Source of the DNA: Desulfuromonas sp.
Lineage (GTDB): Bacteria; Desulfobacterota; Desulfuromonadia; Desulfuromonadales; UBA2294
Direction of reading: 5' to 3'
DNA length: 64,000 bases
Assembly: GCA_002868925.1 (NCBI GenBank)
Contig: PKTZ01000020.1
Location: 3,710 to 67,709 of the forward strand
In this document: one piece after another, positions 2,676 to 25,572 of the stretch
How the letters are laid out: the number at the start of each line of letters is the position of its first letter
How positions within the stretch are numbered: position 1 is the stretch's first letter
The notes under the pieces: generated by a model
Told to the model about the DNA's origin: nothing
The model's database searches: none
What the model saw: only the letters and a program-made list of their open reading frames with translations
Position numbers and translations under genes: made by a program

Positions 2676-3353
2676 ATGCAACTGAAGGATGATTTATTGC
2701 AATGTCCGATGTTCTCCGGGGTGACCGATGAAGACCTGAAATTCCTGGCCGGAGTCATCCGGCAGAGGGTCTGCGAGAAGGGCGAGCTTCTCTTTTCGGA
2801 AGGGGATGCCGCCGCCGGTTTTTACGTGCTGGCCGAGGGACGGGTCAAGGTTTACAAGCTTTCGCCCGATGGCAAGGAGCGGATTCTGCATATCGTCCAG
2901 CCCGGCACCTCCTTTGCCGAAGCGGCGATCTTCGGTGACGGTCATTATCCGGCCTATGCCGAACCGCTGCAGAAGTCGCGGTTGCTCTTCTTTCCGAAAC
3001 GGGAGTTTCTCGACCTGCTGCACAATAAATCACAGATTGCGATCAACATGATCGGCGGTCTCTCCCGGTTCCTGCGGCAATTTGCCACTCAGGTCGAGCA
3101 GCTTACCTTCCAGGATGTCCCGGCCCGCCTGGCCAAGTATATCCTGGGCCTCGCCGGTGACGAGAATGACGAAGTGCTCCTGCCGATTCCGAAAGGGGAG
3201 CTCGCTTCAAACCTTGGGACGGTCAGTGAGACCCTGTCTCGAACCTTCCGCAAGCTATCGGAGGAGGGGCTGATTTCGGTCAAGGGGAAGCAGATCCGAA
3301 TCGAGGACCGGGACAGCCTCGAAGATATCGCCGAGAGCACCAAGGAGAGGTAG
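2676..3353 (+). CDS. Crp/Fnr-family transcription regulator (cNMP-binding-like domain plus C-terminal HTH); lacks the N-terminal Cys cluster of true FNR
   Basis: 225 aa. Beta-roll effector domain (FSEGDAAAGFYVLAEGRVKVYKLSPDGKERIL) and HTH (ELASNLGTVSETLSRTFRKLSEEGLI). Only one Cys in the N-terminus. Confidence 0.9.
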   Translation: MQLKDDLLQCPMFSGVTDEDLKFLAGVIRQRVCEKGELLFSEGDAAAGFYVLAEGRVKVYKLSPDGKERILHIVQPGTSFAEAAIFGDGHYPAYAEPLQKSRLLFFPKREFLDLLHNKSQIAINMIGGLSRFLRQFATQVEQLTFQDVPARLAKYILGLAGDENDEVLLPIPKGELASNLGTVSETLSRTFRKLSEEGLISVKGKQIRIEDRDSLEDIAESTKER

Positions 3354-3369
3354 TCGATTCAATCCGGTT

Positions 3370-3383
3370 TTGACTTCGGTCAA
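3370..3383. promoter_or_regulatory. Perfect FNR/CRP-type palindrome TTGACTTCGGTCAA (TTGAC-N4-GTCAA)
   Basis: Read directly. Centre lies 42.5 bp upstream of ATG 3419 and 17 bp after the Crp/Fnr gene stop. Confidence 0.6.
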
Positions 3384-3418: not shown

Positions 3419-4552
3419 ATGAAAAAATACTTTCAAAACAGATTAGTGCTGCTCTCGGCTTTCTTTACTGTGGTGATCGCAGGTTGTGCCGCTGTACCAC
3501 CTGTTACTGATCTGCCGTCAGATTATCAGCTAAACCAGGTCGGCTCGCTCGGGAAGGGGGACGCGGTAGCCTGGCACCCCGACGGCGAACGTTTCTCCGC
3601 CGCTGGCAAGCGTCTCATGGTTGGATCGGTCGATGGTAACCTGGTTACGATCGACGGTGACGATCCGGCTGCTATCGCCTGGTCACCGACCGGGGCGGTT
3701 CTGGCGGCATCATTCATTGATGGAACTGAAACAACGGTCCGCCTTTACGATGTCGACACCTGGAACAAAATCGCCGAGATCGCGGTTGAGGGCAGGGCGC
3801 GCGATCTCGCCTTTATCGACGATACGGCGCTGCTCATCGCCTCGGTTCTGCTCAAGGAATATTCTTTCGGAGCCAACTATACGGTCCGCCTCTACACCTG
3901 GCGCCAGAATGAACCGCTCGCTTACGATACTATTGCCGACACCTCGCCGCTCAAGTCGTTCCTGGAAGCGCTGGGCGATTCGATCTACGACTCGGTCCAC
4001 CTACAGATATCGCCATTTCGGGACGAGATCCTCTACACCAAGCTATTGTTGACACCGAACGCCGGGCGCAAGGCTCAGCTGGTGGTCCGGCATCTTGCCA
4101 CTGGCCGCGAGCGGATCGTTGCCGCTTTGCCGGCCACTAGTTCCGGCGGACGCTACTTGGCCAAGGGAGACGCCATCTTCTTCAGTGACGGCGCTTACCA
4201 GTCGATCAAGGGGTCGATTTGGGGGACCGAGCCGTACGAAACCTACCTCCCCGGCCTCAGGCTCGAAATCTCGCCGGGAGGGCGTTACAAGCTGATCGAT
4301 AACGCCTTGCTGAAAGACCGCGAAGAGATATTGAAATTCAAAGTACTCGACAGTGCCGCCTTCAGCCCGGACGGCTCCAAACTGCTGCTGCTTGCCGACG
4401 GAACATTGTTCCTGCTTTCGTTTTTTGATGATGCTGTAGTTGATCGTCCGTCCGCGACCCCGAAACTGTTGGAGCTGCGCAGCTGGCGTAGCGAAGGGCT
4501 GATCAGTCCGCAGGAATTCCTGCGCTACCAGCGCCAACTGGAGAATAGATGA
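3419..4552 (+). CDS. Lipoprotein with WD40/TolB-like beta-propeller repeats and a SHOCT-like C-terminal tail
   Basis: Lipobox signal MKKYFQNRLVLLSAFFTVVIAGC. Repeated AWHPDG / AWSPTG / AFSPDG propeller-type motifs. C-terminal LRSWRSEGLISPQEFLRYQRQL. Stop overlaps the next start (ATGA). Confidence 0.75.
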   Translation: MKKYFQNRLVLLSAFFTVVIAGCAAVPPVTDLPSDYQLNQVGSLGKGDAVAWHPDGERFSAAGKRLMVGSVDGNLVTIDGDDPAAIAWSPTGAVLAASFIDGTETTVRLYDVDTWNKIAEIAVEGRARDLAFIDDTALLIASVLLKEYSFGANYTVRLYTWRQNEPLAYDTIADTSPLKSFLEALGDSIYDSVHLQISPFRDEILYTKLLLTPNAGRKAQLVVRHLATGRERIVAALPATSSGGRYLAKGDAIFFSDGAYQSIKGSIWGTEPYETYLPGLRLEISPGGRYKLIDNALLKDREEILKFKVLDSAAFSPDGSKLLLLADGTLFLLSFFDDAVVDRPSATPKLLELRSWRSEGLISPQEFLRYQRQLENR

Positions 4553-5448
4553 TCATTTTACGACCGCTTCTCATAACGGCGCTATTTCTTTTATCCGTGA
4601 TCTCGACGGTTGTCGCCGCCGAATCCTGTCTCGACTGTCACCAAGACGAGACGCCGGGAGCGGTGCGGCAATGGCAGGAGTCAGCCCATGCCGTCGATGT
4701 CGGTTGCGCCGATTGCCACAAGGGTGATCATGAAGCGATCGTCGCCGGTGAAGCGCCGGTCGTCGCTGCCGTCTGCGGTGAATGTCATCGTGATGAATAC
4801 AGTCAACACACTGACAGCCGGCACGGCATGGGGCTGCATGCCGGCTGGGGCTGTACCCGCAACATGCCGGACCGTAACAAGGAAGAATGCCGCTTCTGTC
4901 ACGAAGAGGGGAGCACGCTGCCCCGAACGATCGTCCATTGTGCCCGTTTCCTCAAGCAGAGCAGCGAGATGGGGATGATCGGCTGCAACCGCTGTCACCA
5001 GGTCGAAAACAACTGTGCCTCCTGCCACAGCAACCACCTGACCCGTCCGGAGATCGCCGCCGATCCGAAGGTCTGCGCCAAGTGCCACATGGGGCCGGAT
5101 CACCCGCAGTGGGAGATGTGGGAGACCTCAATGCACGGCACACTCTATTCCTCGGCAGGCCCCGAAGTCGGGCCGAGTTGCCAGCTCTGTCACATGCCTG
5201 ATGGCAGCCATGACGTTTCACGCGGCCTGACATCACCGCCGAGCATGAAGCCGTACACGGAAGCCGAACAGGCCGGGCAACGCGATGAGATGATCGAAAT
5301 CTGTAGCCAGTGCCACGCGGCCGATTTCGCCCGCCGTGATCTGGCTGCTGCCGACGCCGTGCGCAGACAAGGCCTCGCCCTTGTTGCAGAGGCGGAAGAG
5401 GTGGTGCGGGATATAAACGACCGCAATCTGCTCGACCCGCCGCCGTAG
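4549..5448 (+). CDS. Multiheme c-type cytochrome, hydroxylamine-oxidoreductase (HAO)-like, N-terminal heme-binding part; ends at an in-frame TAG
   Basis: Signal peptide. Nine CXXCH motifs (CLDCH, CADCH, CGECH, CRFCH, CNRCH, CASCH, CAKCH, CQLCH, CSQCH). HAO-type motif CAKCHMGPDHPQWEMWETSMHG. Confidence 0.85.
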   Translation: MIILRPLLITALFLLSVISTVVAAESCLDCHQDETPGAVRQWQESAHAVDVGCADCHKGDHEAIVAGEAPVVAAVCGECHRDEYSQHTDSRHGMGLHAGWGCTRNMPDRNKEECRFCHEEGSTLPRTIVHCARFLKQSSEMGMIGCNRCHQVENNCASCHSNHLTRPEIAADPKVCAKCHMGPDHPQWEMWETSMHGTLYSSAGPEVGPSCQLCHMPDGSHDVSRGLTSPPSMKPYTEAEQAGQRDEMIEICSQCHAADFARRDLAAADAVRRQGLALVAEAEEVVRDINDRNLLDPPP

Positions 5449-5499
5449 AAGCGGCCAAAACACCCACTGCAGGGGAATAAACTGGTCACCGACGGCGAG

Positions 5500-5832
5500 A
5501 TGCTCTACGAGGACTACTCGCACATCGAGCGGCTGTTCTTCAAGATGAAGAAGTACTCCCTGGCCAAAACAGTCAAGGGCGCCTACCACCAGAACCCGGC
5601 CTACACCCACTGGTACGGCAACGCCGAGATGAAGATGGACCTGGTCGATATCAAGGCCGAGGCGAGCCGGTTGAAAAAGATGGCCGCCCCGGTGAAGACG
5701 GCAACCACGAGCGATGACAGCAGTTTCGAAGCTAAGCTGAAACTGCTCAAGAAAAAGTTCGATCGCGGAGCATTGAACAAGGAAGAGTACGAACAGGAGA
5801 AGAGAGTGCTGATGCAGGGCTACCTCGAGTAG
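5500..5832 (+). CDS. Same-frame continuation of the HAO-like cytochrome (helical C-terminal region plus SHOCT-like tail)
   Basis: Same frame as 4549..5448, with only TAG 5446..5448 between them. Codons 5449..5499 are open (KRPKHPLQGNKLVTDGE). No Shine-Dalgarno before ATG 5500. Tail KLKLLKKKFDRGALNKEEYEQEKRVLMQGYL. Confidence 0.6.
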   Translation: MLYEDYSHIERLFFKMKKYSLAKTVKGAYHQNPAYTHWYGNAEMKMDLVDIKAEASRLKKMAAPVKTATTSDDSSFEAKLKLLKKKFDRGALNKEEYEQEKRVLMQGYLE

Positions 5833-5856
5833 TCCAGCCTGCGCTATAATCGAGTC

Positions 5857-6234
5857 ATGAAGATGGATGCGGCAAACAAGAGTGAACTGACCAAGAAAGA
5901 GCTGAAGGACCTGCGCGTGCTGGCCCAGTTTACTTCGGTCTATTGCAAAGCCCATCACGACACGGAGCGGTCGCCGCTCGCCGCCGACACTCAGGGAGTC
6001 GCCGAACTGAATGTAAGTAAATACCCGGTCTGCCCGGAGTGCAGCGATTTTCTCTACTACGCGATCAAGCGTCGCCTCTATTGCCCACTCGATCCGAAGC
6101 CGACCTGCAAGCACTGCCCGGTACATTGCTACAAGCCCGACTATCGTCAGAAGGTGAAGGAGATCATGCGCTTTTCCGGAAAATACCTGATGTTGCGCGG
6201 TCGCCTCGATCTGCTCTGGCACTACTTCTTCTAG
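5857..6234 (+). CDS. ygbA: YgbA-like 'nitrous oxide-stimulated promoter' family Cys-rich protein
   Basis: 125 aa. Motifs VYCKAHH, CPECSDFLYYAIKRRLYCPLDPKPTCKHCPVHCYKPDYRQKVKEIMRFSG match my recollection of the YgbA family. Confidence 0.7.
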   Translation: MKMDAANKSELTKKELKDLRVLAQFTSVYCKAHHDTERSPLAADTQGVAELNVSKYPVCPECSDFLYYAIKRRLYCPLDPKPTCKHCPVHCYKPDYRQKVKEIMRFSGKYLMLRGRLDLLWHYFF

Positions 6235-6261
6235 AACCCCTTTAAGGATAGTAGTCGTTTG

Positions 6262-6374
6262 ATGGGACTGTCCACATAAGGGGGCTGTCCCTCTGGTTTT
6301 GCTGTGTGAACTGCCGCGGCACCAGCCTCTGTAATTATATCGGGACAGCCCCCGTTGGAACCGGGGACAGCCCC
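6262..6374. repeat. Cluster of GGGACAGCCCC-type motifs forming a long hairpin
   Basis: GGGGGCTGTCCC (6280..6291) is the exact reverse complement of GGGACAGCCCCC (6342..6353). A third copy GGGGACAGCCCC lies at 6363..6374 and a degenerate GGGACTGTCC at 6264..6273. Confidence 0.6.
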
Positions 6375-6434
6375 GGGTTGGTTTTCTCGGTTAATTGCCT
6401 TCATGACAACCGATTTATCACTTTTCTGTATTTT

Positions 6435-6448
6435 TTGACGCGCGTCAA
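6435..6448. promoter_or_regulatory. Perfect FNR/CRP-type palindrome TTGACGCGCGTCAA (TTGAC-N4-GTCAA)
   Basis: Read directly. Centre 6441.5, upstream of the Fe-S protein gene at 6536. Confidence 0.65.
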
Positions 6449-6467
6449 AGATGTTGTCGGACTGTTT

Positions 6468-6476
6468 TGATATTCT
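6468..6476 (+). promoter_or_regulatory. Extended -10 candidate TGATATTCT
   Basis: TGn plus TATTCT. Predicted TSS ~6483 puts the upstream palindrome centre at about -41.5, the class II activator geometry. Confidence 0.45.
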
Positions 6477-6535
6477 CTGCTTAACAATTGACGAATTGAT
6501 CAACCGAAAACGTTTTTTAGATAAAGGAGAAAGAC

Positions 6536-7330
6536 ATGATCCGCGACATCGTACTCATCGACGAAGAAAAATGTGACGGCTGCGGCCTCTGCGTACCGGC
6601 CTGCGCCGAAGGGGCGATCCAGATCGTCGACGGCAAGGCGAAACTGGCGGCTGATAACCTCTGCGACGGCCTCGGCGCCTGTCTCGGCCATTGTCCGCAG
6701 GACGCGATCAAGGTGGTCAAGCGCGAAGCGGATGAGTTCGACGAGGTGGCGGTCGAGCAGCATTTGAAGGAGACCGCACCGGAGAAACTGGAAGAGTTCC
6801 ATGCCGAGCACGGACACGCACCGACCGGTGGCGGCTGCCCTTCGGCCCAGGTTCAGAACTTCGCCAAGCAGGCCGCTCCCGTTGGCGGTGGTTGCCCGTC
6901 GGCGCGGATGATGAATTTCGACAGCAAGCCGCAAACGGATGCTGATGATCAGGCGGGTCAGCGCCCGTCCGAGCTGCGCCAGTGGCCGGTTCAGCTTCAC
7001 CTGGTACCGCCGACCGCACCGTTCTTCCAGAATGCCGATGTTGTGTTGGCGGCCGATTGCGCGGCGTTTGCCTACGGTGATTTCCATAAGGATATTATCA
7101 AGGACAAGGCGTTGGCGATCGCCTGCCCGAAGCTCGACGACACCACACCTTACATCGACAAACTGACGGCGATGATCACCCAGAGCAATATCAAGAGCCT
7201 GACCGTCGTGTTGATGGAAGTTCCCTGCTGTGGCGGCCTGCTGGCGATGGCGAAACAGGCGATCGCCAACAGCGGAAAGGATATCCCGCTGGAGACGATC
7301 GTCGTCGGTATCCAGGGTGATATCAAGTAG
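6536..7330 (+). CDS. 4Fe-4S ferredoxin-domain protein with Cys-rich C-terminal domain
   Basis: RBS AAAGGAGAAAG. N-terminal CDGCGLCVPACAEG and CDGLGACLGHCP cluster motifs. Duplicated GGGCPSA motif. C-terminal CPKLDD and EVPCCGG. Confidence 0.8.
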   Translation: MIRDIVLIDEEKCDGCGLCVPACAEGAIQIVDGKAKLAADNLCDGLGACLGHCPQDAIKVVKREADEFDEVAVEQHLKETAPEKLEEFHAEHGHAPTGGGCPSAQVQNFAKQAAPVGGGCPSARMMNFDSKPQTDADDQAGQRPSELRQWPVQLHLVPPTAPFFQNADVVLAADCAAFAYGDFHKDIIKDKALAIACPKLDDTTPYIDKLTAMITQSNIKSLTVVLMEVPCCGGLLAMAKQAIANSGKDIPLETIVVGIQGDIK

Positions 7331-7360
7331 TTCCGAGAAAGCTTGTTCATCGTTTATAAA

Positions 7361-7392
7361 GGGCCCGGAATATTCCGGGCCTTTTATTTTTT
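7361..7392 (+). terminator. Rho-independent terminator
   Basis: GGCCCGGAA-TA-TTCCGGGCC hairpin followed by TTTTATTTTTT. Confidence 0.8.
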
Positions 7393-7419
7393 GACAGCAC
7401 CGATACAGTTGCGTAAATT
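7391..7419 (+). promoter_or_regulatory. Sigma70-like promoter candidate (TTGACA-N17-TAAATT)
   Basis: -35 TTGACA at 7391..7396, 17-nt spacer, -10 TAAATT at 7414..7419, ~30 nt before the HD-protein start. Confidence 0.5.
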
Positions 7420-7448
7420 GAAGTAATTTCAATCCGATGGAGGCTGTC

Positions 7449-8012
7449 ATGTCATATGGAATCACCCGTGACGAGGCGCTCGCCCTGGTTGAGGAGCGGC
7501 TCGAATCCCCGAATCTGATCAAACATTGCCTGGCGACCGAGGCGGTGATGCGGGCCTTGGCACTTCGGTTCGATGAGGACCCGGAAAAGTGGGGTTTGGC
7601 CGGTCTGCTGCACGATCTTGACGCCGAAACCCAGCCCGACCTGGCAATCCATACTCAGGAGACCGAAGAGATCCTGCGCGAAAAAGGTGTTGATTCCGAG
7701 ATTATCGAGGCGATCGGCATGCACAACGAGCTGGCGCGCGACCGCAAACGCGCCTCGATTTTCGAGCACGCCCTGGCCGCCGGCGAGACCATCACCGGCC
7801 TGATCGTCGCCACCGCCCTGGTTTATCCCGAAAAGAAACTCGCCTCGGTCAAGCCGAAGTCGGTACGCAAGCGGATCAAGGAGAAGGTGTTCGCTGCCGG
7901 CGCCAACCGCGATATCATCCGCGAGTGTGAGCTGATCGATATTCCGCTCGACGAGTTCTGCAATCTCTGCCTTGAGGCGATGCAGACGGTTTCCGACGAT
8001 CTCGGCCTTTGA
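7449..8012 (+). CDS. HD-domain (HDIG-type) metal-dependent phosphohydrolase
   Basis: GGAGG 5 nt upstream of ATG 7449 (track start 7437 is less likely). Motifs HCLATEAVMRALA and LAGLLHDLD. Confidence 0.8.
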   Translation: MSYGITRDEALALVEERLESPNLIKHCLATEAVMRALALRFDEDPEKWGLAGLLHDLDAETQPDLAIHTQETEEILREKGVDSEIIEAIGMHNELARDRKRASIFEHALAAGETITGLIVATALVYPEKKLASVKPKSVRKRIKEKVFAAGANRDIIRECELIDIPLDEFCNLCLEAMQTVSDDLGL

Positions 8013-23304: not shown

Positions 23305-23904
23305 ATGCTTGAACTATTTGAGAAGGGTGGGGTCCTGATGTACCCCATCCTGTTTTGCTCCATTCTCGCCCTTGCGATCTTTCTAGAACGGATCTGGTTC
23401 TACTCCCGCTTTATAAAGGGGCACGACGAGTTGATCTCAGAGGTCGACCCGTTAATCGCCGAAGAGAAGTTCGATCAGGCTTCTGTTGCCTGTCAACGCT
23501 TCGGTAATCCACTCTCCCGTATTTATGCCACCGCTATCCGCCTGGCCGGCCGTTCCCGGGCCCAGATCAAGGCGGTGGTCGAGGAGGCCGGTTCGCGTGA
23601 AGTCGCTCCGCTGGAGCGTTACCTCGGTCTCCTCGGGACCATAGCCACCATTACACCGCTGCTCGGACTGCTTGGTACCGTTCTCGGCATGATCCGCGCG
23701 TTTACCATCATCTCGGCCGAAGGGGTCGGCACGCCGGCAACCCTCGGGGGCGGCATTTCCGAGGCGTTGATCACCACCGCCGCCGGCCTGACGGTCGCGA
23801 TCCCGACCATCCTGCTGCATAAATATCTGACCGGCCGGGTCGATCGGATGGCTCTCGATCTTGAAGTGAAATCGTTGCGGGTCGTCGATCGATTGGGGAA
23901 GTAG
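23305..23904 (+). CDS. exbB: MotA/TolQ/ExbB proton-channel protein
   Basis: 199 aa, three TM helices, signature LGLLGTVLGMIRAF and EALITTAAGLTVAIP. Confidence 0.9.
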   Translation: MLELFEKGGVLMYPILFCSILALAIFLERIWFYSRFIKGHDELISEVDPLIAEEKFDQASVACQRFGNPLSRIYATAIRLAGRSRAQIKAVVEEAGSREVAPLERYLGLLGTIATITPLLGLLGTVLGMIRAFTIISAEGVGTPATLGGGISEALITTAAGLTVAIPTILLHKYLTGRVDRMALDLEVKSLRVVDRLGK

Positions 23905-23907
23905 GGG

Positions 23908-24327
23908 ATGTTCCGACGTAAGAAAAGAGAGGAACTCCGGGTCGAACTGACGCCGATGATTGACGTCGTTTTCCTGCTGCTGATCTTTTTCATGATCTCG
24001 ACGACTTTTATCGAAACGCCCGGCCTCTCGATCAAGTTGCCGGAGTCGAGCACCAGTATCGCCGACCGGGAGCCGGATGAGGTCAAGATCTACTTGTCGA
24101 AGGAAGGAGAGATCTTCCTGCAGGAAGAAAAGATCAACATCGCCGCACTGCGGGCCCATCTGAAAACATTTGGCGAGCGCAGCCGGAGCATGACCTTCTT
24201 GCTGCTTGCCGACGAGGAGGCCCGTCATGGTCAGGTCGTTCAGCTGATGGATACGGCCAAGGAGAGTGGCTTCGGCAAGTTGGCGATCGCAACCGAAGCG
24301 AAGCCGGGAGGGGTGAAGCAAAATTAG
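23908..24327 (+). CDS. exbD: ExbD/TolR biopolymer transport protein
   Basis: ELTPMIDVVFLLLIFFMISTTF with the conserved TM Asp, and a periplasmic domain. Confidence 0.9.
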   Translation: MFRRKKREELRVELTPMIDVVFLLLIFFMISTTFIETPGLSIKLPESSTSIADREPDEVKIYLSKEGEIFLQEEKINIAALRAHLKTFGERSRSMTFLLLADEEARHGQVVQLMDTAKESGFGKLAIATEAKPGGVKQN

Positions 24328-24372
24328 TATATCCGTGTCCGACTGAGTTGTAATACATCTTTGGAGGAGATA

Positions 24373-25464
24373 ATGAGTAAAACCATAGCGATATTGACCG
24401 GCGGCGGTGACTGCCCGGGGTTGAACGCCGTGATCCGAGGGGTAGTGCGGGCGGCAAGTCGTCGTGATTGGCGGGTGCTCGGTATTCGTGACGGTTTCGA
24501 TGGTCTGGTCGGTGAGCCGCGTTGGATCGAACTCGACAAGAAGGCGGTAAGTGGCATCCTGCAGAGGGGAGGAACCATCCTCGGCACCTCGAACCGGGGG
24601 AACCCATTCTCCTACCCGGTCGAACAGGATGGTAAGACGGAACTGCGAGATGTTTCGCAGACGGTGGTCGATAATTTCCGGAAAATCGGGGCCGATGCCC
24701 TGATTGCGGTCGGCGGCGACGGGACCCTCAAGATCGCCCGCCAACTCGGGCGGCTTGGTATCCCGGTGGTCGGTGTGCCGAAGACCATCGACAACGACCT
24801 GAAGGGGACCGATGTTACCTTCGGTTACAATACCGCGGTCGGGATCGTGACTGAGGCGCTCGACCGGCTACATTCGACCGCCGAAAGCCATCACCGGGTG
24901 ATGGTGGTCGAGGTCATGGGACGCGACGCCGGCTGGATCGCTCTCGAATCGGGTATCGCCGGCTCGGCCGATGTCATCCTGATCCCGGAAATTCCCTATC
25001 GGATCGACAAGGTATGTGCGGCTATTCGCCGCCGGAGCGAGTCGGGACATCTCTTTTCGATCGTCGTCGTTGCCGAAGGCGCGACCTCGGCCAGCGGTGA
25101 CAAGGTCGTCCAGCTCACGGCCGACCAAAACCTCGGGGTCGAGCGGCTCGGAGGAGTCGGCCATCAAGTCGCACGTGAGATCGAAACCTGCCTCGATCTC
25201 GATATGGAGCTTAGGACCGTCGTTCTCGGGCATGTGCAACGCGGTGGAACACCGTCTCCCTTTGATCGCATCCTGAGCAGCCGTTTCGGTGTCAAGGCGG
25301 TTCAGTTGATCGAACAGGGCGGCTTCGGCAAGATGGTTGCACTGCACGGGCGAAAGATCGCTTTTGTCGATATCAATGACGCGGTCGGTCAGCTTAACCT
25401 GATCGACCCGGAAGGGGAATTGGTCGAGGCGGCGGAGGAGCTCGGAATCATGGTCGGCCGTTGA
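24373..25464 (+). CDS. pfkA: 6-phosphofructokinase
   Basis: GGAGGAG before ATG 24373 (the track start 24361 is TTG). IAILTGGGDCPGLNAVIRG, GGDGT, PKTIDNDL, MGRDAGWIA. Confidence 0.9.
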   Translation: MSKTIAILTGGGDCPGLNAVIRGVVRAASRRDWRVLGIRDGFDGLVGEPRWIELDKKAVSGILQRGGTILGTSNRGNPFSYPVEQDGKTELRDVSQTVVDNFRKIGADALIAVGGDGTLKIARQLGRLGIPVVGVPKTIDNDLKGTDVTFGYNTAVGIVTEALDRLHSTAESHHRVMVVEVMGRDAGWIALESGIAGSADVILIPEIPYRIDKVCAAIRRRSESGHLFSIVVVAEGATSASGDKVVQLTADQNLGVERLGGVGHQVAREIETCLDLDMELRTVVLGHVQRGGTPSPFDRILSSRFGVKAVQLIEQGGFGKMVALHGRKIAFVDINDAVGQLNLIDPEGELVEAAEELGIMVGR

Positions 25465-25572
25465 AAATTCTTGACGATTTTGCTGTCAGAAACTAAAGTG
25501 GCATTAATTTAATTATATTATGTTATTAAATAGTTATCCTGCATTGGGGATGCGGCCAAACAGGAACCCGAC

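Follow-up and report, generated by a model that had tools for sequence, protein, structure and literature searches.

A probable strain-private nonsense substitution interrupts a nine-heme HAO-family gene in a Desulfuromonas strain

The HAO-like gene at positions 4549..5832 of the window, i.e. the whole 64-kb stretch of Desulfuromonas DNA analysed here, carries an in-frame TAG at codon 300. This TAG is most probably a recent, strain-private nonsense substitution, which would make the copy a loss-of-function allele, or young pseudogene. Among the explanations offered in the original prediction, those of a recent nonsense mutation or of variation between strains are favoured here, since TCG occupies this site in four further assemblies from the species. 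In our best reading, the allele is an ordinary strain-level knockout; a base error is less likely, and the TAG does not reflect genetic recoding.

The gene lies on the plus strand as a single frame of 299 codons, the TAG at 5446-5448, 127 further codons, and a terminal TAG at 5830-5832. All 427 codons before the terminal stop are sense save the sole internal TAG. The translation agrees with the earlier claim that the two listed open reading frames, 4549..5448 and 5500..5832, share a frame of about 427 codons and are separated only by TAG 5446..5448. The first 299 codons (4549..5445, plus strand) encode a signal-peptide-like N-terminus (MIILRPLLITALFLLSVISTVVAA, read by eye from the sequence rather than with a prediction tool), nine CXXCH motifs, and a first long helix (residues 258-291), and they match Pfam PF13447 with 70.8 bits (cut-off 21.9). 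All nine motifs that had been claimed were located, at residues 27, 53, 76, 114, 146, 156, 176, 211, and 252, upstream of the internal TAG, and no other open reading frame in the 64-kb window has two or more CXXCH. Long helices two and three are encoded by the 127 codons beyond the stop (5449..5829, plus strand), as are the best conserved motif and a SHOCT tail, and the HAO/HDH alignment extends to residue 383. The SHOCT-like short C-terminal domain (5734..5814, plus strand) scores 27.7 bits on the C-terminal piece against Pfam PF09851 (cut-off 27), and such a tail was found in many homologues. The natural stop (TAG, 5830..5832, plus strand) falls at the residue where a public database protein, P0001, also ends. 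The start at 4549 is preceded by GGAG at -10..-7. The sequence upstream of ATG 5500 is GACGGCGAG; on inspection it has no Shine-Dalgarno at proper spacing, as had been noted before, and the downstream piece (5500..5832) has no signal peptide.

Neighbouring open stretches in a common frame are also frequent elsewhere in the window. Therefore, the HAO-like case is meaningful only through homology, and pairs of open stretches around in-frame stops, which we tried as a measure of window quality, were uninformative. A minus-strand pair at 23452..25485, without Pfam matches and apparently an antisense artefact, was dropped. For the HAO-like gene, the NCBIfam HDH-model alignment spans query residues 19-383 and the alignments to HAO proteins in PDB span residues 143-383; both cross the TAG site. 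Judged by homology, the two pieces are one gene rather than a chance co-framing.

To identify the sense codon at this site, a check that the original prediction had suggested, orthologues of the same species were compared. An intact 427-aa gene is present in four same-species assemblies from four samples (L001-L004: ENA ERZ794997 and ERZ794998, JGI 3300007102, and Logan SRR5894288), which share 99.5-99.9% DNA identity with the window without indels. Base 5447 is C in all four, giving TCG (Ser300), and A in the window; thus, the window differs from them at codon 300 by one base. P0001, taken from public data, is 427 aa long, 99% identical to the read-through translation, and has Ser at residue 300. 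Over 15,832 bp, 23 substitutions and no indels separate the window from L001, which does not fit an indel-prone assembly. Seventeen substitutions in the 15.8 kb are private to the window; six of them fall within the HAO-like gene, three being synonymous. In the patch 4856-7695, the window and L002 have alleles in common at 6716, 6764, 6768, 7371, and 7695. As far as these sequence comparisons reach, the private synonymous differences and the L002-shared alleles show the window to be a genuinely distinct haplotype.

Besides the stop, P237T is the only amino-acid change in the window lineage, and both differences 3' of the stop are synonymous. Since the gene is without further decay, the lesion, if real, must be very young; continued selection on the interrupted gene, for example through low-level read-through, may also play a part. 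C-to-A on one and the same strand accounts for three of the six differences in the gene that are private to the window, and also for the one at 6274. The window-private substitutions comprise 7 transitions and 10 transversions, and those private to L003 approximately 10 and 7 (hand tally); these counts are too small for the spectrum to separate error from real mutation. Look-ups of exact products placed neither the 299-aa and 110-aa proteins nor another protein of the window on record, and the TAG allele was not found in other public assemblies. No matches were obtained when metagenomes were scanned with a 28-mer spanning the TAG site (N at the variable base), and a second scan, with a conserved 30-mer, recovered only orthologues at approximately 72% nucleotide identity and no close strains. 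A paper on mutation rates of Geobacter cytochromes does not mention nonsense or pseudogene alleles.

The proposed assignment to the HAO family, with a heme domain followed by a helical C-terminal part, was borne out by both sequence and fold searches. In a phmmer search against PDB, the matches were 4n4j (9.2e-33), 6t5e (1.8e-32), 6hif (6.5e-30), 6h5l (4.2e-26), and 4fas (2.9e-24); the HAO matches (about 9e-33 to 5e-24) cover the heme domain and the helical domain, that is, both halves of the gene. In the AF2 model (pLDDT 69, pTM 0.67), built from the intact allele, long helices span 258-291, 325-346, and 353-379, and confidence is low in the heme domain because the hemes are absent from the model. 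The loop that follows the first of these three helices contains the TAG site. When the model was compared with PDB by Foldseek, the top 11 matches were all HAO, HDH, or IhOCC (E 3e-9 to 3e-5, TM about 0.5). The HAO/ONR/NrfA group is characterised by a three-helix bundle that forms an interface (PMC9250108; PMC11492766). The window copy lacks an intact full-length frame, being stopped at codon 300, whereas L001-L004 have one.

Compared with KsHOX (kustc1061, 4N4J), NeHAO (1FGJ/4FAS), and HDH (6HIF), the protein has the three long C-terminal helices in common, and eight of its CXXCH line up with HAO hemes; those at residues 27, 53, 76, 146, 156, 176, 211, and 252 align with CXXCH of KsHOX. It differs from HAO and HDH proteins (500-580 aa) in its shorter length of 427 aa, its SHOCT tail, and a genomic context of a stress-type operon rather than of ammonia or hydrazine oxidation. 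The ninth motif, CRFCH at residues 114-118 (4888..4902, plus strand), also sets it apart, as it lies in a clade-specific insertion: the NeHAO alignment has a gap at this motif, and the aligned stretches of KsHOX do not include it. Since the protein scores 102.8 bits against the HDH equivalog NCBIfam NF052343, far under the cut-off of 900, it is not a hydrazine dehydrogenase. Where KsHOX has its cross-linking tyrosine, which we take to be Y415, the protein has a conserved YGN(A/G) segment. Y356 faces KsHOX Y415, whereas the NeHAO and HDH alignments place the tyrosine opposite H354 instead (index counting by hand). Y356 is a candidate counterpart of the HAO cross-linking tyrosine, which is bound to the neighbouring subunit's catalytic heme in the P460 cofactor and is a mark of oxidative HAOs only. 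Kustc0458 HAOr (6H5L) is among the best matches in both sequence and fold. Like epsilonproteobacterial Hao, it is reductive and without the Tyr cross-link. The protein studied here comes from a host that is neither a nitrifier nor an anammox organism. Kustc0458 differs in having Trp where the clade mostly has Tyr356, and the present protein has nine heme motifs versus eight. HAOr functions in the reduction of nitrite, NO, or hydroxylamine (PMC8042395). A reductive-HAO-like role on nitrite, NO, or hydroxylamine is probable for the protein.

Conservation was assessed in 120 listed database homologues and in 43 genomic orthologue loci among the matches listed, the latter with identity to the window of at most 62%. 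All 120 homologues are single chains of 419-505 aa with nine CXXCH, and CRFCH 114-118 is invariant in these close homologues; 8 CXXCH were counted in 37/37 distant relatives (approximately 30% identity). C102 and C131 are further invariant cysteines of the clade, which HAO and HDH proteins do not share. Residue 300 is variable (E, D, Q, A, S, R, G, or N), a surface-type position. The 83 residues past it, 301-383, are the best conserved stretch of the family, with a mean majority fraction of 0.81 compared to 0.73 for residues 26-299, and R302, H305, H347, H354, W355, and G357 are invariant across the 120 homologues. H347, H354, W355, and G357 belong to the motif KGAYHQNPAYTHWYGNAE (5575..5628, plus strand), which aligns with the HAO segment bearing the heme-cross-linking tyrosine; Y356 is present in 112 of the 120 homologues and replaced by L or I in 8.

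Among the other readings, an error of sequencing, consensus, or assembly at 5447, or a minority variant in the metagenome consensus, with the real gene intact (TCG), has an appreciable but small probability. The C at 5447 in all four other assemblies and the absence of the TAG allele from the exact-product look-ups would fit it. So would the same-strand C-to-A changes described above, as C-to-A also arises from oxidative DNA damage in library preparation. Against it, there are no indels over the 15.8 kb shared with L001, and the other window differences resemble real polymorphism, lying at synonymous sites or being shared with L002. Moreover, short-read consensus errors are, by a rough estimate, orders of magnitude rarer than the real differences of the window. 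With 17 private substitutions in 15.8 kb and approximately 4% of random coding changes creating stops (rough estimate), one real nonsense substitution is not unexpected. We infer that the A at 5447 is real. If so, decoding of the TAG has to be considered, whether by pyrrolysine, by a suppressor or near-cognate tRNA, or by programmed or leaky read-through, so that a full-length protein is made. The frame past the TAG is fully open with synonymous changes only, and an A follows the stop; TAGA is a weak termination context in E. coli. The part of the genome inspected is 64 kb, and a suppressor or pyrrolysyl tRNA could be encoded elsewhere in the genome. If the amber codon were read through in vivo in this way or by a near-cognate tRNA at TAGA, the full-length enzyme would be made and the TAG would be an expression-level switch, which we consider very improbable, as we do TAG decoding in general. 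Codon 300 is TCG within the same species and variable in the family, arguing that nothing has evolved around the TAG. No tRNA-Pyl is present in the 64-kb window, in which tRNA-Val is the only tRNA and the only Rfam match. The 120 nt 3' of the TAG have no significant RNA structure (MFE -33.9 kcal/mol, z = -1.05 versus shuffles); since the fold is no better than shuffles, a PYLIS-like read-through element was rejected. TAG is also an ordinary terminator here, ending 9 of the 55 long open reading frames of the window, the HAO-like gene itself, and the adjacent regulator gene. The suggested read-through or pyrrolysine insertion was therefore not supported. Methylamine methyltransferases are essentially the only proteins with known pyrrolysine, and the residue is not known to occur in Desulfuromonadales. 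The likeness to mtmB, mtbB, and mttB, which are recoded with pylTSBCD, is limited to an in-frame TAG in an open, conserved frame; unlike in those genes, even strains of one species do not all have the TAG, the residue is variable, and the family is unrelated to methyltransferases.

A different view of the two pieces is that the family is naturally split here into a heme-subunit gene and a helical-subunit gene, and public databases do hold short proteins matching the C-terminal part only. However, where such proteins were inspected on long contigs, they proved to come from frameshifts elsewhere, near residue 261 in L088 and in the 202-243 overlap in L047. L089 and L090 are overlapping ORF pairs taken as frameshifts without alignment, and in L089 the neighbouring Fer4 gene is fragmented too. 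Many fragments begin at the Met of a conserved DPMP motif because gene callers choose that ATG, and the downstream piece of the window has neither a Shine-Dalgarno nor a signal peptide. Natural termination of orthologues at the TAG site, which the original prediction had named as evidence against an interrupted gene, was not seen, since 120/120 homologues are full-length and the gene is continuous in 41 of the 43 orthologue loci listed. With its stand-alone C-terminal proteins traced to frameshifted copies elsewhere in the gene, the split-gene reading was rejected and retains a negligible probability. In a further reading, the truncated heme domain of 299 residues would be exported, would receive its hemes, and would function alone as an electron carrier or altered enzyme, so that the stop would yield a new, shorter cytochrome and not a dead gene. 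The signal-peptide-like N-terminus and the nine CXXCH all lie 5' of the stop. Furthermore, L046, an in-frame deletion variant, keeps the heme domain and the SHOCT tail and lacks the helical region, so a heme-only derivative is not unthinkable. Nevertheless, L046 is one MAG contig, and the SHOCT tail that it keeps is gone in the window product. Of the three long helices that characterise the HAO family, two lie in the lost region. In HAO, the segment aligned with this region extends to the catalytic heme of the adjacent subunit, and all 120 homologues have kept the region. Since the stop precedes the best conserved part of the family, a functional truncated cytochrome is unlikely, and we give it a low probability.

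The surroundings of the gene were conserved as well. The first gene of the operon (3419..4552, plus strand) encodes a 377-aa beta-propeller-like protein with weak WD40/beta-propeller Pfam matches, and its stop overlaps the cytochrome start (ATGA); a homologue lies directly 5' of the HAO-like gene in 35 of the 43 orthologue loci listed. The last gene (5857..6234, plus strand) encodes a YgbA_NO ('nitrous oxide-stimulated promoter') protein (NCBIfam NF007714, 126.4 bits, cut-off 88; Pfam PF11756), which has a homologue 3' of the HAO-like gene in 15/43 listed loci and is followed by terminator-like hairpins at 6279-6294 and 6361-6376. Upstream of the operon, a Crp/FNR-family, HcpR-like regulator is encoded at 2676..3353 (plus strand), with Pfam cNMP_binding and HTH_Crp_2 found on the identical gene in L001 and only sub-threshold NCBIfam matches to FtrB, Fnr, and CRP. 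It ends in TAG, and this TAG does terminate the gene, since orthologue alignments reach residue 224/225. An orthologue of the regulator lies 5' of the HAO-like gene in 13 of the 43 listed loci.

Between the regulator and the operon lies a palindromic box, TTGACTTCGGTCAA (3370..3383), and TTTTGACTTCGGTCAAGG at 3368-3385 matches the HcpR motif. That motif, wyTTGACnnnnGTCAArw, was reported from Geobacter and Desulfuromonas by Rodionov et al. (2005, PMC1274295), and predicted HcpR regulons often include cytochrome c-like and ferredoxin-like genes (PMC1274295). The 64-kb window has only two TTGAY-N4-RTCAA boxes; the second, TTGACGCGCGTCAA (6435..6448), lies upstream of a ferredoxin-like (Fer4-family) gene at 6536..7330. 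A like box occurs at the equivalent place in 15 of the 40 orthologue loci listed, compared with a background of 0.057 per kb. The box upstream of the operon and the adjacent FNR/CRP-family regulator are thus both present in the sequence. The arrangement resembles the HcpR regulon of Geobacter and Desulfuromonas in its TTGAC-N4-GTCAA box before the operon and before a ferredoxin-like gene, and in its adjacent regulator. The conserved operon of beta-propeller, HAO-like, and YgbA genes behind an HcpR-type box suggests a nitrosative-stress role for the HAO-like gene.

Taken from the intact allele, the HAO-like product would be a Sec-exported, periplasmic nine-heme protein, probably co-transcribed with the beta-propeller and YgbA-family genes from a promoter with the HcpR-type FNR/CRP box, and its likely job would be to reduce or detoxify nitrogen oxides (nitrite, NO, or hydroxylamine). 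In the window strain, a C-to-A transversion at 5447 would have changed the variable codon Ser300 (TCG) into amber (TAG), and ribosomes would stop at codon 300 to give a 299-residue precursor. This product would retain every heme-binding motif, nine in all, along with the first of the long helices; long helices two and three would be missing, as would the invariant YHQNPAYTHWYGNAE segment and the SHOCT tail. Such a product is most probably unstable or inactive, which is why the allele is regarded as a recent loss-of-function variant. The downstream piece could not complement the heme domain in the periplasm, having neither a ribosome-binding site nor a signal peptide.

Little is at stake in the stop codon itself, since such loss-of-function alleles appear whenever close strains are compared; the annotation should be a pseudogene or interrupted CDS, and neither two genes nor recoding. 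A by-product of the analysis is a large, uncharacterised HAO-family clade of Desulfuromonadales and Geobacterales with a ninth heme motif and a SHOCT tail. The clade is paired with a beta-propeller protein, and part of it lies behind an HcpR-type box beside a YgbA homologue, so that a role in nitrosative stress or in N-oxide reduction becomes testable. For such a role, the natural nonsense strain and its intact sister strains offer a ready-made comparison.

Translation of the plus strand from 4549 to 5832 gave a single frame, in which 299 sense codons are followed by a TAG (5446-5448), 127 further sense codons and a terminal TAG (5830-5832). Both ORFs cited by the original prediction (4549..5448 and 5500..5832) are present in the mechanical ORF list. 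The nine CXXCH motifs of this hydroxylamine oxidoreductase (HAO)-like gene, at residues 27, 53, 76, 114, 146, 156, 176, 211, and 252 (numbered on the intact allele), all lie upstream of the internal TAG, and no other ORF in the window was found to contain two or more. The prediction of a HAO-like, nine-CXXCH protein with one in-frame TAG was thus borne out by translation, motif count, and homology. The genuine start carries GGAG at -10 to -7 and shares an ATGA with the stop codon of the preceding gene; inspection of the bases ahead of ATG 5500 revealed no properly spaced Shine-Dalgarno sequence, as had been claimed. Same-frame pairs of open stretches are frequent across the window, and it is homology, not co-framing, that shows the two pieces to be one gene. 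One such pair, on the minus strand at 23452-25485, consists of two long open stretches in one frame with a TAG between them; neither has a Pfam match, and in translation the pair resembles an antisense artefact.

The intact form of the gene occurs in the same species. The 427-aa database protein P0001 shares 99% identity with the sequence translated through the TAG and has Ser at the stop position, and the predicted full HAO-family length of about 427 codons is therefore correct. Its gene is present in four assemblies, each from a different sample (ENA ERZ794997, ENA ERZ794998, JGI 3300007102, and Logan SRR5894288), and the gene order there matches that of the window. The window shares 99.5-99.9% DNA identity with the four contigs, without a single indel, and base 5447 is A in the window (TAG) versus C in all four (TCG). 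At five more positions of the gene the window differs from all four contigs, and three of these changes are synonymous. P237T is private to the window; at T103 the window retains the family-conserved Thr, which is Asn in the other four. Window-private C-to-A changes on the plus strand lie at 5157, 5257, 5447, and 6274.

Over 15,832 bp, 23 substitutions set the window apart from L001, one of the four contigs; 8 of them are synonymous, 12 are non-synonymous, and 3 are intergenic, a split typical of very close strains. Fourteen of the 23 fall within a 2.8-kb patch at 4856-7695, and at 6716, 6764, 6768, 7371, and 7695 the window shares with L002, another of the four, an allele absent from L001. 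The pattern resembles true haplotype variation or recombination rather than random noise, and may reflect a mosaic or recombinant tract or a mixture of strains.

We further compared the gene with 120 listed homologues from Desulfuromonadales and Geobacterales, which, except for P0001, were 56-68% identical. Every one is a single chain 419-505 aa long in which CXXCH occurs exactly nine times, so the alternative that orthologues end at this site and encode the remainder as a separate gene does not hold. Residue 300 is variable (E, D, Q, A, S, R, G, or N) and directly precedes the invariant R302-P-x-H305-P-L. The best-conserved part of the protein is residues 301-383, beyond the stop, with a mean majority fraction of 0.81 versus 0.73 for the heme domain; the near-invariant KGAYHQNPAYTHWYGNAE falls inside it.

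The gene is continuous in 41 of 43 listed orthologous loci, the exceptions being a frameshift on L047 and an in-frame internal deletion on L046. When the C-terminal piece was used as the query, short stand-alone proteins were matched, many beginning at the Met of a conserved DPMP motif. A natural two-gene split was rejected, since four copies traced on long contigs proved to be frameshifted, with breaks at other positions: L047 10001-11208 (within the residue 202-243 overlap), L088 3108-4387 (near residue 261), L089 2190-3480, and L090 2051-3357. The last two are overlapping ORF pairs read as frameshifts without alignment, and a gene neighbouring the L089 copy is fragmented. L088 and L089 are, at a guess from their 'contig_N' names, long-read assemblies. 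Such frameshifted public copies give rise to spurious stand-alone 'C-terminal' proteins in the databases. On L046, a Desulfuromonadales MAG contig, the copy at 1893-2738 is followed by ygbA and codes for a 281-aa variant, in which the heme domain to about residue 248 is joined straight to the SHOCT tail, without the ninth CXXCH and the helical region; this variant may be either a genuine short version or a product of misassembly.

The internal TAG is therefore probably a real, strain-private nonsense (amber) allele of a normally intact, single-ORF HAO-family gene; of the explanations originally offered, a nonsense mutation is favoured by the TCG of the four same-species contigs. That the A at 5447 is an error or a minority-variant artefact seems unlikely. 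Exact look-ups of the truncated ORF products found the TAG allele nowhere else, and C-to-A changes make up three of the gene's six window-private differences; however, there are no indels relative to L001 across 15.8 kb, the window's remaining differences behave like real polymorphisms, and consensus errors in a clean assembly are much rarer than such real differences. With 17 substitutions in the 15.8 kb private to the window, and an estimated 4% or so of random coding substitutions giving stops, one real nonsense SNP is unsurprising.

Read-through was also among the original explanations and is highly improbable, whether by recoding or by a suppressor tRNA encoded outside the 64-kb window. 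TAG serves as a normal stop in this DNA, closing 9 of 55 long window ORFs, the HAO-like gene itself (at the same residue as P0001), and the neighbouring regulator gene, to which orthologues align as far as residue 224 of 225. The 64-kb window yielded a single tRNA-Val and no other tRNA or Rfam match, and RNA structure in the 120 nt after the TAG was no better than in shuffled sequence (z = -1.05). In the sister strains the surrounding sequence is the same but the codon is a sense one, so the site has not evolved for recoding.

The N-terminal part of the protein matches PF13447 in Pfam (70.8 bits against a cut-off of 21.9). The NCBIfam hydrazine dehydrogenase (HDH) model aligns to residues 19-383, spanning the stop, at 102.8 bits against a 900-bit cut-off; therefore, the protein is a relative of HDH and not an HDH. 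By sequence, the intact allele matched solved structures of Kuenenia HOX (KsHOX, 4n4j; 9e-33), Brocadia HAO (6t5e), HDH (6hif), the reductive HAO Kustc0458 (6h5l), and Nitrosomonas HAO (NeHAO, 4fas/1fgj), with HAO/HDH alignments extending to residue 380-385. An AlphaFold model built from 30 homologues had a moderate pLDDT of 69, with poor quality in the heme domain, as is to be expected of a model lacking hemes; its best 11 PDB fold matches were every one HAO, HDH, or IhOCC. The model has three confident long helices (258-291, 325-346, and 353-379), and three long interface-forming C-terminal helices are a known hallmark of this group (PMC9250108; PMC11492766). The internal TAG falls in the loop following the first. 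The protein, presumably a periplasmic multiheme cytochrome, ends in a SHOCT-like short C-terminal domain (5734-5814) that scores barely over the Pfam cut-off and is kept across much of the clade.

Against the nine motifs of this clade, eight were counted in each of 37 more distant relatives from other phyla, at about 30% identity, and in the aligned regions of the solved HAOs. The ninth, C114-x-x-C117-H118 (4888-4902), is invariant and is accompanied by invariant C102 and C131, in an insertion that NeHAO and KsHOX lack. Judged from these alignments, the three features are specific to the Desulfuromonadales/Geobacterales clade, and no description of a nine-heme HAO clade was found in the literature searched. 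Tyr356, within THWYGNAE (5605-5628), is present in 112 of the 120 listed homologues and is L or I in the remaining 8. Index counting on the alignments places it opposite chain residue Y415 of KsHOX, which we take to be the cross-linking tyrosine. However, the tyrosine of NeHAO and HDH is aligned opposite the invariant H354, and in Kustc0458 the residue matching Tyr356 is Trp; given this conflict, the clade may either form a P460-type cross-link or be of the reductive HAO kind.

Directly 5' of the HAO-like gene, in 35 of 43 listed loci, is a gene for a 377-aa beta-propeller-like protein almost without family annotation (3419-4552), whose stop in the window overlaps the cytochrome start (ATGA) in translational coupling; it may be a partner subunit. 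A YgbA_NO-family gene lies 3' in 15 of the 43 loci, the window copy passing the NCBIfam cut-off, and a Crp/FNR regulator lies upstream of the operon in 13. TTGAY-N4-RTCAA boxes occur only twice in the 64 kb, both as TTGAC-N4-GTCAA palindromes: at 3370-3383, ahead of the beta-propeller/HAO-like/ygbA operon and with an equivalent in 15 of 40 listed loci, and at 6435-6448, ahead of a ferredoxin-like gene (6536..7330). Each fits the motif described for HcpR in Geobacter and Desulfuromonas (PMC1274295). In reductive members of the HAO family, the compounds reduced are nitrite, NO, and hydroxylamine (PMC8042395). The operon context, the box, and these relatives suggest that the intact gene may act in periplasmic N-oxide reduction or detoxification.

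Termination at codon 300 would leave a heme domain with its signal peptide and nine motifs but without two of the three long helices, the SHOCT tail, and the invariant His/Trp/Tyr motif, which aligns with the HAO segment bearing the heme-cross-linking tyrosine. The downstream piece lacks both an RBS and a signal peptide and therefore could not join the periplasmic heme domain. Loss of function is thus the most likely consequence, and a functional 299-residue product is very unlikely. Approximately 400 nt of untranslated mRNA could, in addition, lower expression of the downstream ygbA-like gene. We advise annotation as an interrupted gene or pseudogene. The explanation is ordinary and the finding real; its modest value lies in a natural null allele beside intact sister strains, and in an uncharacterised nine-heme, HcpR-linked clade.
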